Positions 5,816 to 45,971 of a DNA stretch of 64,000 nucleotides are shown piece by piece. This DNA comes from a virus (taxonomy: Duplodnaviria; Caudoviricetes). Positions within the stretch are counted from its first letter, which is position 1; each line of letters starts with the position of its first letter. Location: IMG/VR virus record IMGVR_UViG_3300024268_000035, positions 1 to 64,000 of that record; one strand, written 5' to 3'. The position numbers and the translations under genes are program-made. The notes below the pieces were generated by a model that ran no database searches, was not told the DNA's origin, and saw nothing but the letters and a program-made list of their open reading frames with translations.

Positions 5816-6163
5816 TCATTCGATTGTACCTTCAATCCTGCAGTATTTACCTGATTCATATACAGGCTTCATAGATTCTTTTGCCATATCTTCAAAAAAG
5901 AGTTGATTGGGGTTATGGATGACATATGCTAACCTATTTCCGAAGAAAACGCTATAAAAGCCTTCTTCATAATCTTCAACGATAGTAGTATACGCATTTG
6001 TTATTGCTTGTCCACCAATTCCTCTAAAACCAAGAGCTGTACTGCCCCAAGTTTGCATAAACATTTTCATGGTTGCATCGTGATATGTATACTCTTTGTT
6101 AATGGCACGAACAGCATTTATATGTCGTTCTTGAATGAGAGGTAAACATGGTAATTCTGCCAT
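5816..6163 (-). CDS. Hypothetical phage protein
   Basis: ORF with AAGGAG RBS; QTWGSTALGF..GGQAIT motif. Confidence 0.5.
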   Translation of the reverse strand: MAELPCLPLIQERHINAVRAINKEYTYHDATMKMFMQTWGSTALGFRGIGGQAITNAYTTIVEDYEEGFYSVFFGNRLAYVIHNPNQLFFEDMAKESMKPVYESGKYCRIEGTIE

Positions 6164-6184
6164 AAATGATCTCCTTGAGTATTA

Positions 6185-7295
6185 TTAGTTGTTATCGTCA
6201 AGCAAGTGTTTCCATCTAAATTTCTTGTCACCGGCTATTATTTTGCCATCATCTTCAGCTTGAAATCGTTTATCATAATCGTGTACGGTATGACCATCAG
6301 ATTTGAATGTGGTAGGACTGTCAAGATCCCACTTCAAGAGTATCTGCCAGAGTTCCGGATAATTCTTGCGGAGCAGTCGAAGCTGATCTACGCCTTGATT
6401 ATGACAAAACCAACATCCGCCTCTTGTTGCGGTTGTGTAAATGGGTGAAAGAAGGTCGTTTTCTTCGCACCACTGTCTGCAAAATGCTTCATCCCATCCG
6501 ATATCAACAAGTGGAAGAATTTTTCCGGGGATACTATGTCGTTTGATACGTTCAGGTTCGTCGGCTGCAATGCCAAGATACTGTACAATATTTATTTTTG
6601 CCCCTTGTACAATGGGGCTATTGGAAAACTCGCTGTTTGAGATGTGTACACCAATTCCCTCTCCCGACTGAGATTGGAAACCCGTAGACATCTTGCTTTG
6701 AGGTCGCTGTTGCACCAATTTCCCCTGATGATTGGGAATCCGAGGATCGAATTGGAGTGCTGGTCGTTTGAGTCCCGAATTGCACCACGGGACTCCTTGA
6801 ACTGGGAATCCATTCGGAGCGTTCTCGCTGAATCGCCCCCCCCCGCAATGGCTTTGCTCTTTCGTCTCTTGGGAATATGATAGAATATCTTTTCGTAAGT
6901 CAGCTTCTCGTAATAATTCTGACATTGCCCAGAGCTTGAGCTTTTTGCACCATGCTCCTTTGGTGAGAGGGAAGCCTTTGAGAGTTCCAATGAATCGTCC
7001 TCGTTCAAGTGGTTTATAGAAGAGTGATTCGTAGGATATCTTTGACTGCCCCCCCCCTCATGGCGCAAATATGTTCCACTTGAATTCCATAGCGTTCAAG
7101 TATGATCTTATCTGCTTTCTCCTTAAACTCTACCATGGGCGGCAAGTCTGCTGAAATTGTATCGGTTGCCCACACCTCAGCATGAACAATTCTGTCGAGA
7201 GGGTATCCAAGAAGTCGGATCGCTTCAAGACAGGCGAGACTATCCTTACCATACGAGAGTGAAAGAATATATTCGGTGTTGGGTTGTCTTTCCAT
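6185..7295 (-). CDS. PAPS-reductase/DndC-like protein, frame-broken at G9 tracts, with alternative internal cassettes
   Basis: N-terminal SLSYGKDS PP-loop; C-terminal YLGIAADE..R, PL, RGGCWFC; G9 tracts at 7049-7057 and 6836-6844. Confidence 0.8.
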
Positions 7296-7344
7296 TTTGT
7301 TTCTTCCTTTGGTATAAGTGTGGAAGACTGTCTCCCGCGTATAG

Positions 7345-7548
7345 TCAGTATGAGATCTGGTTAATGTATTCTTTTACCTTTTCTACGTTCCAAAGAACAC
7401 GTCTACCGATCTGTACACGAGCTTCCGCAGATTCCCCAATATGTATTGCGCTATCTCTGCCGCAACTAAGTAAGAATTGTAGTTCTTCTGTTGTAACCGC
7501 AATCTTGAATGGAATCTGAATATCGCTTGATTTTTTTGTTGTTTTCAT
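7345..7548 (-). CDS. Excisionase-like small HTH protein
   Basis: LSCGRDSA...ARVQIGRRVLWNVEKVKEY, a MerR/Xis-like pattern. Confidence 0.55.
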   Translation of the reverse strand: MKTTKKSSDIQIPFKIAVTTEELQFLLSCGRDSAIHIGESAEARVQIGRRVLWNVEKVKEYINQISY

Positions 7549-7572
7549 ACGGAAAACAGCCTCCTAAAATTT

Positions 7573-7890
7573 TTATGTACGATCCTCTGGACAGTTACCG
7601 TCAAATACCTGCAACGGAATCGGAGAGATTATCATAGGTGTAAGGACACACCTTCTGACTTCGTGCCACTTATCAATCCATGTTAAATCTTCCTGAACAG
7701 CAATGAAATGCGCTTTACGTCCTTTTACATTTTCGTGTAACCCTCTTACGCACAGGATCGTCATATAATCATTAGCATAAATTTTCTCATGTCGCAAATT
7801 TTTTAGCGGTTTTTCTGGTATGTCATAAAAGCGTTTAAGATATCTTTCAAGAGCGATTTCATCTTTGTAAAGTATCAAGATTTTGAACAC
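7573..7890 (-). CDS. Hypothetical protein
   Basis: GGAGG RBS before a GTG start. Confidence 0.5.
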   Translation of the reverse strand: MFKILILYKDEIALERYLKRFYDIPEKPLKNLRHEKIYANDYMTILCVRGLHENVKGRKAHFIAVQEDLTWIDKWHEVRRCVLTPMIISPIPLQVFDGNCPEDRT

Positions 7891-8048
7891 GTAATACCTC
7901 CTATGTGAATGAGTTGATTAGCTAAGTCCTATAAATTATTTACTGGATTCCAGTGAAAAATCCAAGAGAAATAGCATTTTATAGCGTTAGGTAAACAAGA
8001 ATACCTATAAGAATAACATCCGTGAAATTAGTGGAAATTCACTGTAAA

Positions 8049-8714
8049 TCAAACAGATTCATCTTCCTTAGCTTTTGGCTCGTAGAAACACTCGCTGCTG
8101 CCATCCTGCTGGATTACCAACGCACACAGATTTCCGTCATAAACACAAGCTGAGTCAATGCAGATATCACCTGTATTAACAATGTATGCACGTTTGTTTC
8201 TGCTGGGCGTATGTCCGAAAACAACTTGTTTTTCTCTGGGTTCTGTTTCAGTTGTTATCCAATTTCTTCCCCAGATAAGATCGTGATCTGTATTGTCTTT
8301 CAGCATTGGGTGGGAAAGACCGGCATGACAGAAAATAATTTGCGGTGTCTCATATACAAGCGGAAGGGATTTGAACCATGCGACAGCACTTGACATACTT
8401 GCGTCATTCTTTTCAAAACTGTATGATGTAGCCATCCCGCCATTGTAATACCACAAATTGTGATTTCCGCTTTCGTGTGCATCAATCGCCATTTGTTCGT
8501 GATTCCCACGCAGACAAATCACTTTATTTTCACCAGCCTGAGTGCGGAGTTTACGTAAAGTTGAAACCACTTCATAACTGTGAAAACCACGATCAATATA
8601 GTCTCCGACAAATACCAGTGTATCTGTTGCACTGGTATACGATATCCTGTTCATAAGATTCAACAGTGTGTGATAGCAGCCGTGGATATCGCCTATTGCA
8701 ATTACTCTTTCCAT
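8049..8714 (-). CDS. Calcineurin-like metallophosphoesterase (Ser/Thr phosphatase family)
   Basis: GDIHG, GDYIDRG, RGNHE, HAG, FGHTP. Confidence 0.92.
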   Translation of the reverse strand: MERVIAIGDIHGCYHTLLNLMNRISYTSATDTLVFVGDYIDRGFHSYEVVSTLRKLRTQAGENKVICLRGNHEQMAIDAHESGNHNLWYYNGGMATSYSFEKNDASMSSAVAWFKSLPLVYETPQIIFCHAGLSHPMLKDNTDHDLIWGRNWITTETEPREKQVVFGHTPSRNKRAYIVNTGDICIDSACVYDGNLCALVIQQDGSSECFYEPKAKEDESV

Positions 8715-8715
8715 A

Positions 8716-8991
8716 TTATGTAATTACCTCCTTTACCGTATTATCTGTGTTGAACACTATACGATCTGTATAGAAGAACTCGGTGTGGCTGCCTACATCA
8801 AACTTTGTCATTGGCTTATTATCCTGTTCTGTATTCCAGATGCGAATATAATATATCTTGAAGTTGCGTTCATTACAGAATCGATGAATATGCCGAATTG
8901 CTTCGGCTCTCGCTTTGGATGCTGTAAGATCATCGCTGATTTGCGCTATTTCACGCATAACGCCTTGACTATTTTTGAAATAAAGATTCAT
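8716..8991 (-). CDS. Hypothetical protein
   Basis: Operonic ORF with a DVGSHTEFF motif. Confidence 0.5.
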   Translation of the reverse strand: MNLYFKNSQGVMREIAQISDDLTASKARAEAIRHIHRFCNERNFKIYYIRIWNTEQDNKPMTKFDVGSHTEFFYTDRIVFNTDNTVKEVIT

Positions 8992-9470
8992 GTGATATTA
9001 CCACCGTGTTCCGGGAGTTTATATATTGTTACGTCCATGTGTCGGAAAGCCATTTCGATCATCTTATATACAAGATCCCAATTCCCATTTGCAAGCCCAC
9101 ATCCGAAATTATAGGGAAAAGCTAACGACTGACCCGGATGTTCATTACGAATTGTACTGAATGCTCTTGCGAGAGCTGGGTAATCCGTATATCGTTTGTT
9201 TTTGTTTCGTCCGTATTCGAGCTGACCGAATATGTTTGCTACACATTGATCTGGCTTGATTCTTACGATTTGCACTTTGCCAAGAAGTTTGTCCGGAGAA
9301 TCAAACTGGTTGCAGAACTTGTGGTATGAGCTTTTTACGATAGGGTATCTTGTGTAGATAGCCTTAGCGACTCCGGATCCCATTGCGTTTTGACAATTTA
9401 CCTGTTGGCAGATAATATCTTCTGTCGCGTGAAGAATATTGTCATTGATAATTTTAATCATATTGAACAC
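8988..9470 (-). CDS. Macrodomain protein (ADP-ribose hydrolase, DarG/TARG1-like)
   Basis: QQVNCQNAMGSGVAKAI, FPYNFGCGLANGNW. Confidence 0.88.
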   Translation of the reverse strand: MFNMIKIINDNILHATEDIICQQVNCQNAMGSGVAKAIYTRYPIVKSSYHKFCNQFDSPDKLLGKVQIVRIKPDQCVANIFGQLEYGRNKNKRYTDYPALARAFSTIRNEHPGQSLAFPYNFGCGLANGNWDLVYKMIEMAFRHMDVTIYKLPEHGGNIT

Positions 9471-9996
9471 CCTTTCGTTCTTCTGGAGGAATCAAAACGA
9501 CTGTGCCGTAATCAGCATGAAAACACGAAATCCGATGCTTTTGGTTCCACTGTTTTGCAAAATTCTCAAATTCCGTATACGCTTCTTTATCAAATGAGAC
9601 ATCTTCGCAATCAAGTTCTTCCTCAATATGAGCCAGAATTTCACTTGGATCAAGTTCCCCGTATTCAATTTGCGTACCATACACATATTCGGGAATCGGA
9701 AAATCGTTATATTCGTAATGTTCAACCAAATCGTCGATACCGTAGAAAAAGCGATCTCCATCATATAACATATGATCCGGGAATTTTTCCTCGTATTCTT
9801 TCAGTGTAAGTTTCTGCGCTTTTTCGTACTGCTCTTTATCTCTGCACGAATCACACTTCAAGATGTACTTTGGGGTTTCACATCCGCATACACTGCAATG
9901 ATATGGAGCGCAGCATTTGTCGGCGGCTTTTTCGTTCAGATATTTCTTACCGCATTTTTCACAGGTGAAAATATCGACTCTTTCTTTTATAGCCAT
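9454..9996 (-). CDS. Cys-rich hypothetical protein
   Basis: CEKC, CSVC, CDSC motifs. Confidence 0.5.
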   Translation of the reverse strand: MAIKERVDIFTCEKCGKKYLNEKAADKCCAPYHCSVCGCETPKYILKCDSCRDKEQYEKAQKLTLKEYEEKFPDHMLYDGDRFFYGIDDLVEHYEYNDFPIPEYVYGTQIEYGELDPSEILAHIEEELDCEDVSFDKEAYTEFENFAKQWNQKHRISCFHADYGTVVLIPPEERKGVQYD

Positions 9997-9998
9997 AT

Positions 9999-10443
9999 TT
10001 ATTTCTCCTTGTCTGGGCGAAAGATTACTACCATACTTGGGAACGGAGCAGAATTCTTTCCATCTCCGAACTTTAATCTTCCACGAATAAATCTAATTTC
10101 CACATTTGGTTTTTGATAGATATAGTCATGAAAATAACTTGTGTCTGTTCGTGCCGGGATCAGCATCACAACAGTTGTATTGGGTTTCTTGGATTCGTCC
10201 GAACACTTTTTCACCCAATCTTTTATCGCTTTACCGTATGGTGGATTACAGAATACGGTCTGCCCCCCCCCAGCACTGTGCAAGTCCATTATCATGTTCC
10301 GTGTAATATGTATCACACTTATGATTCTGGTCATCAGCGCAAGGATCAAGAGTGAAGTGAAATTCGTTATCCAGTGCATCAAAGAAATTCTGGGGTGTTG
10401 CCCAGTTCATTGATTTTGAGGAAAACATTATATCTAAGCTCAT
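9999..10443 (-). CDS. Phage DNA N6-adenine methyltransferase (Dam-like), frameshifted at a G9 tract
   Basis: WATPQ..F..LD.EF.FTLDPCA in one frame; VFCNPPY, MLIPARTDT, GRLKF, APFPS in the next; G8 at 10263-10271 would fuse them. Confidence 0.88.
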
Positions 10444-10649
10444 TTTTGCTCCTTATATGATTCGCGCCATGCGGCGCAATATGGTTCGATATGTCGTGGA
10501 AATTCTAATACTCGCTCACTGTCACGATAACCACACGTCACTTTTACAGTTTTTTTATCTTCTGCAATATGTACTTTATGCAAGCAATTATAACAAGACT
10601 GAGATTTGCTGATACCACACATTCTGCGGTATTTACTCTTATGAGCCAT
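10440..10649 (-). CDS. Small Cys-rich protein preceded by a G9 RBS
   Basis: CYNC...YCAAW; G9 at 10659-10667 lies in the SD position. Confidence 0.5.
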   Translation of the reverse strand: MAHKSKYRRMCGISKSQSCYNCLHKVHIAEDKKTVKVTCGYRDSERVLEFPRHIEPYCAAWRESYKEQK

Positions 10650-10668
10650 TTTAGAAAGCCCCCCCCCT

Positions 10669-11031
10669 CTATGTTATTTGATATCGTTTAATCCTTACAG
10701 CCAGTCCTTTACTTTGGGCTGTTTCGATCATATGTTTCGTTCCAACAGATTTTCCATCCCAAAATGCTACAAGAGCATCTGCATTTTCTGCCATTTTTAC
10801 ATTTCTGATGAATCCGGCTGCTTTACCGTCGATATCCCAGTCAGCAGGGAAGTAGCGGATCTTGTAACCATGTTCTTTTGCATACTGTTCTCCAAGACGG
10901 TCTGCTCCACGTGCCATACCGCAAATAACGACGATTTCATCATTTATGTTTTTCAGGAGATGGTCAAGACTGGCGGCAAGACCATTGTAATTGGTAAAGT
11001 CTCTACCTCCGGCTACGATTACGCGAAACAT
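10669..11031 (-). CDS. SLOG/YspA (DUF2493)-family protein
   Basis: VIVAGGRDF, GMARGAD, AGFIRN..M, AFWDGKSVGT. Confidence 0.85.
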   Translation of the reverse strand: MFRVIVAGGRDFTNYNGLAASLDHLLKNINDEIVVICGMARGADRLGEQYAKEHGYKIRYFPADWDIDGKAAGFIRNVKMAENADALVAFWDGKSVGTKHMIETAQSKGLAVRIKRYQIT

Positions 11032-11801
11032 ATTTCCTCCAATCTTTGTGTGGCGACATCTGCCCATGACATTCCGAAATATTTGCTTTTCTTGTTGTCG
11101 CAATATCCGTTATCCATACCGATATACTGCCTGTTTTCTATCTTTGCAGCAATCAGCGTAGAACCACTTCCGCAGCAGTTATCCAGAACAACAGCTCCGG
11201 GATCTGTGTATGTTCGGATTATGTATCTACATAACTCAATTGGCTTTTCGGTTGAACTGATTGCTACTGAAGGATGCGGTTTTTGGAAAGTCCAAATAGA
11301 AGCTGGATATTTCATTTCGCTTTGGTTATCCATAACTGTATAGGATCCGTAAATACGATTGTTAAGGATATCTTCTGCATTTTCACCTTTGGCTTTCCCT
11401 TTACTATGGCTTGGTAAACCCTTTACCATTTCAGGATGATATACCGGCTGCTTCTTATAGAAGACCATAATATCCTCATGTTCCCGCATCGGCATACGGT
11501 TTGCATTTAAGAATCCGCTTTTCAGCACCTTATTCCAGATGATGTTGTAACGATGGAGTTTTTCATTTGAGAGCATCATTCTGGCAGTGAATTTATCCTG
11601 ACCGAACAGAATAATCGCACCATTCGGTTTTATGATCCGTTCGTACTGTTCCCACAGCTTGTCCGGTGGAATTACCACATCCCATTTTGCTTTGAGTACC
11701 CCGTAGGGGAGGTCACAGAGAATTAGGTCGATAGATTCATCTGCAATCTCCCGCATACCGAGTAAACAATCAATGTTATAGACCTGATTTAATGATATCA
11801 T
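11019..11801 (-). CDS. N4-C/N6-A DNA methyltransferase (beta class)
   Basis: DLILCDLPYG, EKP, VLDNCCGSGST. Confidence 0.9.
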   Translation of the reverse strand: MISLNQVYNIDCLLGMREIADESIDLILCDLPYGVLKAKWDVVIPPDKLWEQYERIIKPNGAIILFGQDKFTARMMLSNEKLHRYNIIWNKVLKSGFLNANRMPMREHEDIMVFYKKQPVYHPEMVKGLPSHSKGKAKGENAEDILNNRIYGSYTVMDNQSEMKYPASIWTFQKPHPSVAISSTEKPIELCRYIIRTYTDPGAVVLDNCCGSGSTLIAAKIENRQYIGMDNGYCDNKKSKYFGMSWADVATQRLEEICFA

Positions 11802-26858: not shown

Positions 26859-27554
26859 TCAGATTTCTTCTGATTTGTCAAGGGGTTTGGATGAAATTTT
26901 TGAAATTTCTGTAACTCGTAATGGATCTTTATAATCTCGTGCGGCAAGTGTCGGCGTGATGCCAGATGTGTAGCATCGCGGCGCACCTTCTCTACCCATT
27001 TGCTTCACATCAAGGATTACAGGGGGGGGCAGCATATACCAACCGGTCTTAGCTCCACCACCGCCAGCTTCAGCTTTCAAAGCACGGGAGACGGTACTGC
27101 CATCATAAATACGATTGGCATCTCCATTATAACCGTTAATATACCCAACTTGCGTCAGCTCCAGATCCTTAATAGCGTCATTACTTTCCGGACGGGAATC
27201 TGGATCCAGTCTGGTTAAGGCTTTTTCAAAAGCTCCAATTCCGCTGAAGAAAGAACCGATCTCCATATCATCAAACAGGTAGGGCATAGCATCATATAGA
27301 TTTTCCATGATATGTACAAGGACATCAACAACGATACTGTTACCGGCTTGCTTATAAAGCTGCGTATTGGAAATACGTTCGATTCTTTCTTCTGATGAAA
27401 ATTCACGTTTTCCTTTGTGTTTAGGGTGTTCTGTCAAAAATGTCATACTCTCTTCGATTGAATAGTATTTGGCGTTTTCAAAATCAATATCATCAAACCC
27501 CATGAGCCGCCAACATTCTTTAGGGGTGAGTTTTCTTACTCGTACTTTTTCCAT
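26859..27554 (-). CDS. C5-cytosine methyltransferase subunit: motifs IX-X, then motif I, then two TRD-like modules
   Basis: RKLTPKECWRLMGF, QLYKQAGNSI, FFSGIGAFE, SRALKAEAGGGG, TPTLAARDYK; C8 tract at 27022-27029. Confidence 0.8.
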   Translation of the reverse strand: MEKVRVRKLTPKECWRLMGFDDIDFENAKYYSIEESMTFLTEHPKHKGKREFSSEERIERISNTQLYKQAGNSIVVDVLVHIMENLYDAMPYLFDDMEIGSFFSGIGAFEKALTRLDPDSRPESNDAIKDLELTQVGYINGYNGDANRIYDGSTVSRALKAEAGGGGAKTGWYMLPPPVILDVKQMGREGAPRCYTSGITPTLAARDYKDPLRVTEISKISSKPLDKSEEI

Positions 27555-27567
27555 AATCCTTACCCTC

Positions 27568-27768
27568 TTATGCTTTATGATCTTCTTTTGATAATTCCAA
27601 CACGCCTGTCATTTGCTGATTACCGAAACCTTTATAATCTCGTGCCAGTAATGTCAGTGCAATATCGCTATATCCATCAAGATGGTTGCCCTGATTGCTC
27701 AGACGAACACCTTTCTTTACAGATGAGCAAGTCCCATGTGTGTCGTCCATCAACGGAACCTCTGCCAC
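27568..27768 (-). CDS. TRD-like module reachable by tract slippage
   Basis: IALTLLARDYKGFGNQ; joins the upstream ORF if the C8 at 27801-27808 becomes C9. Confidence 0.6.
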   Translation of the reverse strand: MAEVPLMDDTHGTCSSVKKGVRLSNQGNHLDGYSDIALTLLARDYKGFGNQQMTGVLELSKEDHKA

Positions 27769-27782
27769 CCGTTCTGATGGTA

Positions 27783-28470
27783 TTACTGATGTTCCGTTGT
27801 GGGGGGGGCGATCATTTCAGCTACTTTTTCATCGCTGAGATAATAATGCTCTTCAACATTGTCTTCCAACATATCACTCAGGGACGCTTTCAGAGGGATA
27901 GGATCCGGGAATTTGAACCTTCCATTATCCAGATCCTTACGGATTATGATACAGTATACGCGCTCTCTGTTTTGTGGAATTCCGTAGTGCTTGGCATTCA
28001 ACACCTGCCAATACACATTATAACCGTATTCTTCCAGTTCAGCGACAAATTTATCGAAGGTTTCCTTAAAACGGCTGCCTACGATATTTTTGACGTTTTC
28101 GTAAATGGCGAATCTGGGTTTCTTTTCACGGAGAAACCGCAGCCACTCAACCAAGAGGGAAGAACGGGTTTTATCAATTTCTGCTGATCCGCATTTCGGA
28201 CAATACGAGCGTGTGGTATAGTGGGTTTCGAGAGGGTTATATGTGTGGCTGCAAGTTTTACATCTCCACGCTGCCCCCCCCCTGTTTACCTGCTATTGAA
28301 AAGTCCTGACATGGACTTCCGCCGAACATGACGTTAAAATCAGGAACTGTCTTTTCATCTGCTTTTGTAATATCACCGATGTTAAGAGACGGATCAACGC
28401 CATGTACTGCACAATAGCTTTCTGCGGCGTACTTATCGAACTCGCAGAACAAGGCAGTTTTGTAATTCAT
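27783..28470 (-). CDS. C5-cytosine methyltransferase catalytic subunit (motifs II-VIII), frameshifted at a G9 tract
   Basis: EFD, GDI, GGSPCQDFS, then ENVK, LNA.HYGIPQNRERVY; G8 at 28274-28282 restores the frame. Confidence 0.85.
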
Positions 28471-30700: not shown

Positions 30701-32065
30701 TTACACAACCTCCTGAGCTTCTTCCAAATCAGGGCTGACAGCAGTATCTTTAACGATACCTTCCAGAACCTTGAATGAGAAGTTTTTGTGCTTATACGCT
30801 GTGAACTTAGGACGATTTACAATTCTGACTACAACACCTTCGCGTACATGATCCTTACCTACCGGATCTGCGCCGTCGTAATACTGTTCTGCAATGTTCT
30901 TCACACATTCTCCGACAGAACATTCTTTCGCTGTGCAGGTATCCGCATATGGACAATCCTCACCGCCGATATACCCCTTCCAGAATACGGGTACGGTTTT
31001 TACGCCCATCTGTTCGCAGCGATAGCGCATGAAATCAGGAGTGTATTCAACAACGTCGCCATCTTCGTTCGTCATTGTCATGCGATAAACATAGATATCG
31101 GACTGTGGATGTGTAGGCGCATAACAGTCCTCTGTGAAACCTGCGGGTTCACATCCATAACTGAATACTGTGGTTTGCCCATACTGCTTGATAAAGTCCT
31201 TGTTGTTTACCTTCTTATTATCACAGGAGGACATAATAGGAGTACCGTCCTGTGTGAACCCTACGACTTCATAATAGACAGTCTCGCCCTTATGAAGTTT
31301 TCCTTCAAAGAACTTGCTGTGTTGTTCACGGAATTCGTTACTTCCATAAAAACCGCCGTCGTAATTGTCCAGAACAACACGACGGGTTCCTGTTACATAA
31401 CCCCAGTTATATATCGGTGTACCGTGACGTTTTAAGAGCTTGTCCATGAGAGTTCTCTTGTACCCAGAGAGTGTGGGGAGATAACCTGTTCTCTGAGATG
31501 TTCCGTGCATTTTGAGAGTGATTTCAACCTGATCTCCGTTATGGAATGCGGAAAGATTGTAGGAAAGCTGTTCTGTATCAGCGTGTTCCATAAAGAGTGG
31601 AGCGACTGGATCTTTACGCTTACGAGTGCGATTACCAGACGGATACCCCCCCCTACTATCGCTACGCGGAATATACTTTTCACAGATTGTAATTCCGTTC
31701 AGAACCGTGATTGTGTCTCCTTCGCGGAGCGTAGAAATATCGGTGAAATCTTCCAATGATGACAGCGGCATAAACAAGCCGTCACTCTTTTCGCCACGAA
31801 GCGTCAGAGCTTTGATATTACGCTTTTCGGGATCCAAATATCCTCCGGCTGGCTTACCATTTTCATCCTTACGGCGGAGCAGGTCATGTTTCTGTGCAAA
31901 TTCAAGACCGAGTTTACCATCCACCGGGAAATACACACCAAGTTCGTCAGGCTTTGTGTTAAGCCCAACGATTACGGTGTTACCAAAGCATTCGCCGCAC
32001 AACAGTCTGTCAGCGTTGGAATGTTTTCTTACATTTTTAATTCTTGTGATAAAAGCTGAATACAA
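30701..32065 (-). CDS. ATP-dependent RNA ligase (DRB0094/Rnl-like) with N-terminal OB domain
   Basis: HSNADRL, LRGEKS.G, motif I TLKMHGTS, YYE, EGVV, KHK; in-frame G8 tract at 31646-31653. Confidence 0.85.
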   Translation of the reverse strand: MYSAFITRIKNVRKHSNADRLLCGECFGNTVIVGLNTKPDELGVYFPVDGKLGLEFAQKHDLLRRKDENGKPAGGYLDPEKRNIKALTLRGEKSDGLFMPLSSLEDFTDISTLREGDTITVLNGITICEKYIPRSDSRGGYPSGNRTRKRKDPVAPLFMEHADTEQLSYNLSAFHNGDQVEITLKMHGTSQRTGYLPTLSGYKRTLMDKLLKRHGTPIYNWGYVTGTRRVVLDNYDGGFYGSNEFREQHSKFFEGKLHKGETVYYEVVGFTQDGTPIMSSCDNKKVNNKDFIKQYGQTTVFSYGCEPAGFTEDCYAPTHPQSDIYVYRMTMTNEDGDVVEYTPDFMRYRCEQMGVKTVPVFWKGYIGGEDCPYADTCTAKECSVGECVKNIAEQYYDGADPVGKDHVREGVVVRIVNRPKFTAYKHKNFSFKVLEGIVKDTAVSPDLEEAQEVV

Positions 32066-45518: not shown

Positions 45519-45971
45519 GATTGTTTACTCCTTGTTCAGAGATTATGATGTTACTTCTTTGAGTTTTCCTATTCGGAAAAAGTACGGCAAGGATGTTGAC
45601 CCTACCCCCCCATTATCAGGCGGACTCGGTAGCGGCTTTCCGCACATTGGGCAGTATTTGAACTGAATATGATTACCAGCAGTATCAGAGAAAACATTGG
45701 TTCCAAGGCGAATAAACGCTTTTTTAGGAGCATTTACTGACACAGACGATTCTACCCAAAAGCCTCTCTGCCATTGGCAATATCCGCATCCAATCAAATC
45801 GCATCACCTCCCATTCATAGAATTAACATAGCAAGTTTTCTGCATTTGTTATCCGTTCGGGAGTTAAACCCGCTCTCCGTTAAGGCGTTCCACCGGGAAC
45901 TGTGCGGACAAATAGGGTTGATTAGTTAATTCCATAGGTGTACTTAAAAGGCTTGCGCCTTTGTAAGTATG

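Follow-up and report, generated by a model that had tools for sequence, protein, structure and literature searches.

The gene at positions 6185..7295 on the minus strand of the phage record IMGVR_UViG_3300024268_000035 is probably a heritable, repeat-driven selector of protein isoforms, in which ribosomes from two reading frames would be returned to a third by a putative frameshift. The window analyzed was the first 64 kb (64,000 nt) of this 101.5-kb single-contig phage genome. The gene encodes a PP-loop protein (PAPS-reductase/SspD-like, by PHROG, PADLOC and Foldseek), and consists of an N-domain, an array of alternative loop cassettes, a candidate recoding signal and a C-domain. The switch architecture and an RNA pseudoknot behind the array were well supported by comparison of sequences. 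A frameshift funnel, which is putative, was the best explanation of how all the cassettes could be joined to the C-domain.

Cassettes in three frames downstream of a simple repeat

All features of the gene lie on the minus strand. The frame of the C-domain is designated f0, f1 is the +1 frame, and f2 is the frame that the N-domain has as sequenced. The N-domain open reading frame (ORF) as sequenced (7014..7295) is 93 aa long, carries the PP-loop SLSYGKDS, and stops just past a tract of nine Gs (tract 1, 7049..7057). Since tract 1 at G9 meets this stop after 93 aa, the window copy is in an OFF state.

At G8, tract 1 leads to cassette 1 (GFPLTKGAWCKKLK, f0, 6935..6976), a type also present in relatives. 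At G7 or G10, cassette 1 is bypassed, and the frame of KLTYEKIFY (f1, 6880..6906) is entered. This helix motif of the second unit and that of the first, KISYESLFY (f0, 7016..7042), share the consensus K[IL][ST]YE.[IL]FY. The second is homologous to the motif preceding the single repeat in relatives of the L035 type (relatives are given by L numbers).

From the KLTYEKIFY frame, a second G9 tract (tract 2, 6836..6844) selects among three more cassettes. G7 or G10 gives cassette 2 (GFPVQGVPWCNSGLK, f0, 6767..6811), G9 gives cassette 3 (GFPIIRGNWCNSDLK, f1, 6697..6741), and G8 gives cassette 4 (GFPISVGRGNWCTHLK, then KQRVF, f2, 6636..6683), which occupies the ancestral position. Four GFP..WC..LK cassettes are in this way spread across three frames.

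The original prediction, made from the sequence of the window, had described two tracts of exactly G9, four cassettes, the two helix motifs and the correspondence between tract length and cassette frame, all of which were reproduced here. It had also stated that three frames stay open for over 200 nt. From tract 2 to position 6629 (T-run), 207 nt were free of stops in all sense frames, where ~9.7 stop trinucleotides were expected from the rest of the gene, and zero stops were reached by 0 of 200,000 shuffles. At the DNA level, the interval 6400-7200 contained nothing that Tandem Repeats Finder scored as a tandem repeat; the likeness of the cassettes is confined to the protein.

When viral contigs were searched with the C-domain, 143 relatives were obtained and 80 of these retained. 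Bacterial genomes yielded 88 in a further scan (80 retained), mostly from metagenome-assembled genomes (MAGs) of gut Clostridia (Oscillospiraceae, Ruminococcus, Faecalibacterium and Christensenellales). Canonical genes, such as L075, encode ~255-265 aa with a single cassette, are in one frame throughout, and contain no repeat. Multi-cassette genes contain 2-4 cassettes in differing frames, with a simple repeat just upstream. Their cassette spacing is often 58 or 61 nt, which places each cassette at +1 relative to the preceding one.

The multi-cassette architecture was present in at least 55 of 80 viral loci and in at least 21 of 76 loci from Clostridia MAGs and genomes. Ten distant matches were found in deposited phage records, none of them multi-cassette. 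The nearest deposited phage relative was in Phage nd4 (L161, OR777945.1, 28812-29780), where the gene is annotated as two hypothetical proteins and is split inside the C-domain, not at the cassette array.

Several cassette types recurred across lineages (..WCKKLK, ..WCTSDLK, ..RGNWCT.LK and VQ.VPWCNSGLK). Cassettes 2, 3 and 4 of the window had counterparts at equal offsets and frames in L001, L007 and L081, those of cassette 2 reading GFPVQ[QR]VPWCNSGLK. Comparison of cassette number and frames among homologs, which had been proposed with the prediction, gave the same architecture, a repeat of variable length and cassettes kept at the protein level.

The type of repeat depended on the lineage (G6-G13, C8-C10 or (AG)5-17) and its position was constant. 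The use of differing repeat types at one position argues that the switch itself is selected.

The length of the repeat varied between nearly identical sequences. L001, L002 and L004 had 2-3 mismatches in 1280 nt, and their indel was one G at one or both tracts. L035 and L039 (8 mismatches in 1280 nt) had G9 and G7, respectively, and differed by 1 nt in a 3' A-run; L040 had a 2-nt insertion at the tract. L017, L018 and L023 (no mismatches in 1280 nt) differed by one AG unit, and so did L025 and L027 (no mismatches in 839 nt aligned). The N-domain was in frame with cassette A (f0) in L039, with B (f1) in L035 and with C (f2) in L040.

Contigs assembled from other samples carried the window sequence with G10 (run X7) or G6 (run X8) at tract 2, where further samples had G9. 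The contigs of run X7 broke at both tracts, which is no more than suggestive of heterogeneity within the population. The gene resembles a simple-repeat contingency locus in that a repeat within its reading frame varies in length between otherwise identical genomes.

Such tracts might also act on RNA. RNA polymerase would then stutter on G9 and produce all isoforms in each infection, the length of the DNA tract being of minor importance. Long homopolymers are known sites of transcriptional slippage (dnaX, IS elements), and stuttering would explain the tolerance of OFF genotypes. However, many lineages have (AG)n or G5-G6 at the same place, which are poor substrates for stuttering, and the DNA length differences were seen directly between near-identical contigs and between samples. 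This makes RNA slippage a very unlikely substitute for the DNA switch, to which it could add. Contig X13 from an RNA library carried G9/G9, which does not show expression.

A G8 tract was also observed within the C-domain, 5 nt before the GCWFC codons, in L009, L011, L012, L015, L016, L022, L026, L031-L045 and L078. It encodes the Gly-Gly ahead of CWFC, for which the window reads GGC GGA instead, without a tract. It is possibly an additional on/off switch.

The off-frame cassettes varied as coding sequences do. In three-frame loci, the stretch between the repeat and the T-run was free of stops in all three frames; where only f0 and f1 held cassettes, f2 had 3-8 stops over this stretch. The Gly, Phe, Pro, Cys, Leu and Lys codons of f1 and f2 cassettes varied synonymously over the full range, like those of f0 cassettes. 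Among similar cassettes, 44-59% of the differing codons were synonymous in their own frame and 6-9% in the other two, the own-frame figure being inflated by the selection of cassettes by motif. The synonymous fractions were equal for f0, f1 and f2 cassettes, an equality that this selection does not affect. The lineages that keep the off-frame motifs have C-domains that are 55-87% identical.

The proposal of a frame-multiplexed switch among loop cassettes, and not only of an on/off control, was strongly supported by its recurrence in dozens of independent loci, by the repeat as the sole indel, by frames that are open only where they hold a cassette, and by the equal synonymous spread.

A T-run and a covarying pseudoknot before the C-domain

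The C-domain (NIVQYLGIAADE ... GGCWFC ... stop, f0, 6185..6594; phrog_28782, phrog_424 and alignment A3) can be reached from f0 alone. The frame of cassette 3 (f1) stops at 6592-6594 and that of cassette 4 (f2) at 6618-6620. Without return to f0, these two cassettes would therefore give only truncated protein. Cassette 3 would need a -1 shift, and cassette 4 a -2 or a +1 shift. The prediction had accounted for the selection of cassettes, but left the route from the frames of cassettes 3 and 4 to the C-domain unexplained; it would require the T-run and the pseudoknot described below.

The T-run (U4 in the RNA) at 6625..6628 is the proposed slip site. Its first T is in f0 phase, and it supplies a Phe codon in each frame (TTT in f0 and f1, TTC in f2). 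Among the relatives, the run was located 210-213 nt 5' of the GCWFC codons, and its first T opened an f0 codon in nearly all loci. Wherever f1 or f2 held a cassette, its stops occurred only past the run, 4-238 nt after it. In L044 (TTT TAG), and in L026 and L029 (TTC TGA), the stop followed the Phe codon directly. This indicated that a return to f0 must occur at the T-run.

A spacer of 6 nt (6619..6624) separates the run from an H-type pseudoknot (6582..6618) supported by covariation. Stem S1 pairs 6614-6618 with 6600-6604 (GCCCC/GGGGC), and S2 pairs 6605-6611 with 6582-6588 (TGTACAA/TTGTACA). In the relatives, S1 is a GC stem of 5 bp (GCNCC/GGNGC) that starts 4-7 nt downstream of the T-run, and each of the four Watson-Crick pairs occurs at its middle position. 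The pseudoknot forms by pairing of the hairpin loop (..TGCACAA) with the I-V-Q codons of the C-domain (TTGTGCA). Rfam contained no family for the region. Signals for programmed -1 frameshifting are typically built of a slippery run, a short spacer and a pseudoknot. The spacer of the window falls in the usual range of about 5-9 nt, and together with the covarying pseudoknot it has the structure expected of such a signal.

In the alignment of 37 distinct sequences, 98.4% of the cells paired, versus 31-58% when the partners were slid. Compensatory double changes occurred in 5 of the 12 pseudoknot pairs (37 cells), and the observed covariation score was reached by 0 of 500 shuffles. In S2, the TGTACAA/TTGTACA of the window was replaced by TGAACAA/TTGTTCA in L007, GAACAG/CTGTTC in L033, GCACGA/TCGTGC in L043 and CACTA/TAGTG in L092. 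Substitutions in the loop replace the encoded amino acid (Ala, Val, Glu), and those that compensate for them exchange one Val codon for another. The conserved element is therefore the RNA structure.

Fifty-nine distinct pseudoknot sequences were further compared by a per-sequence script. The S2 of each formed a mean of 7.1 bp with its own downstream strand, versus 3.8 bp with those of other lineages. MAFFT alignment A4 of the diverged MAG knots misregistered several rows and was not counted.

The MAG set had played no part in defining the pseudoknot. When cassettes were present in two or three frames, the pseudoknot was found in 21 MAG loci and not found in 2; when cassettes were in one frame, it was found in 1 and not found in 51. 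The two apparent exceptions, L139 and L156, do contain the knot, but there a C-run (CCCC or CCCCCC) takes the place of the T-run, ~205 nt 5' of the GCWFC codons, which suggests a variant of the device that slips on Pro codons.

The interruption of the gene as sequenced, and the proneness of homopolymers to error in some sequencing chemistries, would be explained by a decaying pseudogene or a sequencing artefact. The architecture was, however, common to independent assemblies from many studies, the stop-free three-frame stretch was far beyond chance, and selection in each frame was accompanied by covariation in the pseudoknot. The comparison of repeat lengths, the open frames, the covariation and the shuffles effectively refuted this reading, which we give almost no chance.

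We propose the following mechanism. A hypermutable repeat in the linker just before the GFP..WC..LK loop changes length at the DNA level, and two to four versions of the loop lie downstream, in different frames of one stop-free stretch. The length of the repeat therefore determines whether the N-terminal PP-loop domain is in frame with one of these versions, and with which, or with none (OFF). At the U-run before the pseudoknot, ribosomes in f1 and f2 would return to the frame of the C-domain, by -1 from f1, and from f2 by -2, or by +1 where the run is T5-T6.

Ribosomes in f0 would stay in their frame, since the run is preceded by a base other than T and a backward slip could not re-pair. The element would in this way funnel f1 and f2 into f0. 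In 22 of 57 rows, the run formed part of a canonical heptamer, G_GGT_TTT, in phase for a shift from f1 to f0. Seen from f2, the sequence is G_GTT_TTC, and a -2 slip would place the Phe tRNA on the TTT of f0.

After the shift, cassette 4 of the window would read ..WCTHLKQRVF-SNSPIVQGAKINIVQYLGIAADE. This product is colinear with the canonical ..WCNSRLKQSVLAKLPKNSVQYVGIAADE, barring a knot-encoding stretch that is ~8 residues longer; a canonical relative reads LKQSVLAKLP..VQYVGIAADE after its cassette. Behind an upstream cassette, ribosomes would translate the later ones out of frame, which would give a disordered linker. In an AlphaFold2 (AF2) model of the L039 product, both domains folded, and the out-of-frame linker (residues 136-182) had pLDDT <50, which is compatible with a disordered loop. 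The cassette variants may alter substrate, partner or recognition, and the phage population might thereby hedge against differing host defences; this last step is proposed with less confidence.

Three other uses of the region were considered and rejected. An intrinsic terminator did not fit, as the T-run is 5' of the hairpin. Translational bypassing between the CAA codons that flank the TAG at 6618-6620 was rejected because neither the stop nor the codon pair is conserved in the relatives. An internal start for the C-domain was rejected for the lack of a conserved start codon.

That lack also bears on the possibility of a split enzyme, in which the N-domain plus cassette would terminate, the C-domain would be made by reinitiation, and the pieces would assemble. 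The f1 and f2 stops lie near the start of the C-domain, many loci have a Shine-Dalgarno (SD)-like AAGGAG or AAGGGG within the 3' arm of S1, and the proteins of PHROG 28782 match the C-domain alone, all as a split enzyme would have it. But the SD-like motif is followed by a Val codon that reads GTA in the window and GTT in L007 and L033, its purine run becomes GGCG or GGTG always with matching changes in the opposite arm of the stem, and the positions of the stops are not conserved. We regard a split enzyme as highly improbable.

The distinct loci, 67 in number, were sorted by the shift they would need. The N-domain was in frame without a shift in 16, would need -1 in 17 and -2 or +1 in 8, and was OFF in 26, including the window. 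Plain ON/OFF phase variation would have enzyme made only in the state that is in frame throughout, the other frames being null. The off-frame cassettes would then be a recombination reservoir or recent duplicates, and the knot would serve mRNA stability or a truncated isoform.

The OFF loci speak for such a control, as do the non-canonical slip site of the window and the putative nature of the shifted product. It does not account for the excess of states that need a shift (25) over the in-frame states, or for off-frame motifs that are retained by synonymous change while the C-domains have diverged. Nor would it predict frames that are stop-free only where a cassette is present and only up to the T-run, or a pseudoknot that accompanies multi-frame arrays and is absent from single-cassette genes. 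Plain ON/OFF control was judged unlikely.

Several points weigh against the isoform selector that we favor. The frequent OFF state implies that the gene is dispensable at least sometimes. At G8 in tract 1, the window would have two cassettes in frame simultaneously, as do L055 and L017. Taken by itself, S1 has no exceptional stability (-9.9 kcal/mol, z -1.2), the S1 hairpin being the minimum-energy fold of the slip-site region. The slip site of the window (A_GTT_TTC context, GAG before the run) is no canonical X_XXY_YYZ heptamer, and with GAG ahead of the run only the Phe tRNA can re-pair. Frameshifting at the T-run is itself the putative step, and a -2 shift is rare in bacteria. The modification of DNA by the enzyme and the effect of the cassettes on its specificity, both part of the prediction, are proposed from gene neighborhood and fold.

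The enzyme and its neighborhood

PHROG 424 ("PAPS reductase") matched the N part of the gene, which holds SLSYGKDS (profile 158-219), and the C part, which holds GIAADE and GGCWFC (profile 271-392). About 160 residues separate the two matches in the window, where the profile has ~52 positions. The C part also matched PHROG 28782, ~150-aa proteins (about 154 aa) of unassigned function that equal the C-domain alone. These are probably orphaned C-domains, produced as gene-caller fragments of frame-switched genes.

The PP-loop motif SxGxDS was found as SLSYGKDS in the N-domain ORF and was invariant in alignments A2 and A3. Pfam, including PAPS_reduct (PF01507), had no family at E up to 10 for the window pieces or the full-length relatives. 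NCBIfam gave only a sub-threshold match of 30 residues, and a sequence-profile search of the PDB gave only chance matches to ribosomal proteins.

In PADLOC, SspD (PDLC02782) matched the canonical relative with E 2.9e-10 (residues 3-213 vs profile 2-200 of 277) and a modest score of 38 bits. The PADLOC scan at E up to 1 returned SspD alone and no DndC. The gene had been predicted to be PAPS-reductase/DndC-like; the match to PHROG 424 agreed with the first part, but no DndC model matched, and the closest defence model was SspD.

The AF2 model of the canonical relative L075 had a pLDDT of 84.8. Foldseek matched it to MnmA, CysH, Mtb APS reductase, TtuA, LarE and TilS with high probability (0.97-1.0 for the first four), despite TM-scores of merely 0.35-0.52. 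By this predicted fold, Rossmann-like and alpha/beta as in CysH, MnmA and TtuA, the gene product is a remote PP-loop ATP pyrophosphatase. Its fold-level relatives mostly modify sulfur or nucleic acid.

In the L075 model, the cassette spans residues 101-115, a loop that passes into a helix at W109, and includes an invariant Cys. Further invariant cysteines are found in CR.WC and CWFC in the alignments. By analogy to APS reductase, the cysteines of the three motifs may share a metal or Fe-S site.

The ORFs at 5816-11801 matched PHROGs for a NinI-like phosphatase, a phrog_335 'phosphatase' family protein, a 'GTP-binding domain' family protein and two DNA methyltransferases; four ORFs gave no PHROG match. 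The PP-loop gene lies within a nin-like early region. Relatives have DNA polymerase and C5 methyltransferase genes as neighbors. Neighborhood and fold make a role in nucleic-acid modification plausible, and, more weakly, suggest an SspD/NinC-like ATP-pyrophosphatase that acts on nucleic acid.

SspD, DndC and BrxP are PAPS-reductase-like ATP pyrophosphatases of DNA phosphorothioation (PMC12914056). The gene resembles SspD and lambda NinC in its PP-loop fold, its SspD profile match and its nin-like setting with a NinI-like phosphatase and methyltransferases. It differs from SspD/DndC in that it matched neither DndC nor PF01507, and in that no ORF at 5816-11801 matched PHROGs annotated SspA/B/C or DndA/D/E. 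The neighbor check was made by PHROG annotation, with no Ssp/Dnd model run, over this interval and not the rest of the 101.5-kb genome.

Other genes of the phage also contain long tracts. A Dam-like DNA methyltransferase (phrog_111, 9999-10443, minus strand) is split at a G9 tract (10263-10271) into two ORFs, which cover positions 59-113 and 115-206 of the profile. It is probably a phase-variable on/off methylase. Its N-terminal piece also matched phrog_33262 ('PAPS reductase', profile 306-353 of 495), which points to fused PAPS-reductase-methyltransferase proteins in other phages.

The G/C homopolymers of the 101.5-kb genome are bimodal in length, with nine tracts of 7-9 nt, one run of 6 and few of 5. 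Since the genome has so few runs of 5 or 6, all nine long tracts look selected. Six further tracts of 7-9 nt lie at 10659-10667, 27022-27029, 27801-27808, 28274-28282, 31646-31653 and 45605-45611, three of them inside a C5 methyltransferase (26859-28470), a candidate for a similar design. The interrupted Dam-like gene and the tracts in the C5 methyltransferase suggest population-level bet-hedging against restriction, Ssp/Dnd-type or BREX-type defences.

Comparison with known systems

Full-text literature searches on PAPS reductase, frameshifting and phase variation in phages, on repeats with pseudoknots, on phage SspD and on phage contingency loci found nothing on this architecture. Phage repeat tracts that vary within populations have been reported as poly-G hypermutable tracts in Campylobacter phage (Sorensen et al. 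2021) and in the preprint 'Phages use contingency loci as a bet-hedging strategy' (10.1101/2025.10.21.683753). The present gene is like these in its variable tract. The reported tracts differ in that they concern gene inactivation or receptor-binding proteins, and the text of the preprint makes no mention of PAPS reductase, methyltransferases or isoforms.

Gene callers break genes of the present kind into "hypothetical" fragments, and repeat-bearing "pseudogenes" in phage and MAG data may be switches. The gene points to a phase-variable, multi-state modification of nucleic acid by phages of gut Clostridia, the modification being suggested by neighborhood and fold. We give about even chances to a more general principle, in which the reading frame would serve as an address: up to three or four modules would overlap, the repeat would pick one heritably, and the U-run with its pseudoknot would merge the frames (-1/-2).

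Contingency loci and phasevarions are the nearest class for the repeat itself. They include phase-variable Type III mod genes and the poly-G of hsdS in Neisseria NgoAV, which changes specificity by truncation. As in the window gene, a hypermutable repeat in a coding region shifts the frame heritably and reversibly, in genes of DNA modification and with bet-hedging as the benefit (reversibility, DNA modification and bet-hedging being putative for the window gene). Phasevarions, however, turn a gene on or off or truncate a subunit, whereas the window gene has a module of its own in each frame, and the frames would be rejoined downstream.

The closest known published precedent is futC of Helicobacter pylori, which reportedly combines a poly-C tract with a dnaX-like -1 frameshift cassette. 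It would share with the window gene a phase-variable homopolymer and a -1 frameshift signal (putative here) in one gene. In futC, the frameshift is said merely to leak expression from the off-frame, in a single module, with neither three-frame coding nor convergence of two frames.

Programmed -1 frameshift signals are known from dnaX, IS elements and the phage tail chaperone G/GT, and arteriviruses have a -2/-1 site, G_GUU_UUU. The element of the window resembles them in its slippery run, spacer and downstream H-type pseudoknot, and relatives carry G_GGU_UUU. The f2 site G_GUU_UUC is almost the arterivirus -2 heptamer, with the same geometry. Classical signals split one frame into two products, whereas the present element would merge two frames into a third, and its use would depend on a DNA switch upstream. 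If so, it would provide natural -2 frameshifting in a bacterial system and a recoding signal that converges frames instead of splitting them; frameshift signals elsewhere may likewise act to rejoin frames.

Systems of cassette choice include shufflons, the invertible segments of hsdS and the phage Mu G segment, silent-cassette conversion at pilS and vls, and diversity-generating retroelements. Like these, the window gene stores alternative versions of a segment, presumably of specificity, that diversify a protein. Unlike these, it involves no recombinase, inverted repeats or reverse transcriptase, and its alternatives are part of the expressed gene itself, in its other frames, with the frame deciding among them. 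If the proposed mechanism is true, it would be a new route of protein diversification beside invertible segments, silent-cassette conversion and diversity-generating retroelements, built solely from a repeat tract, overlapping coding and a recoding signal. It would be a phage analogue of mutually exclusive exon choice that works without splicing or recombination.

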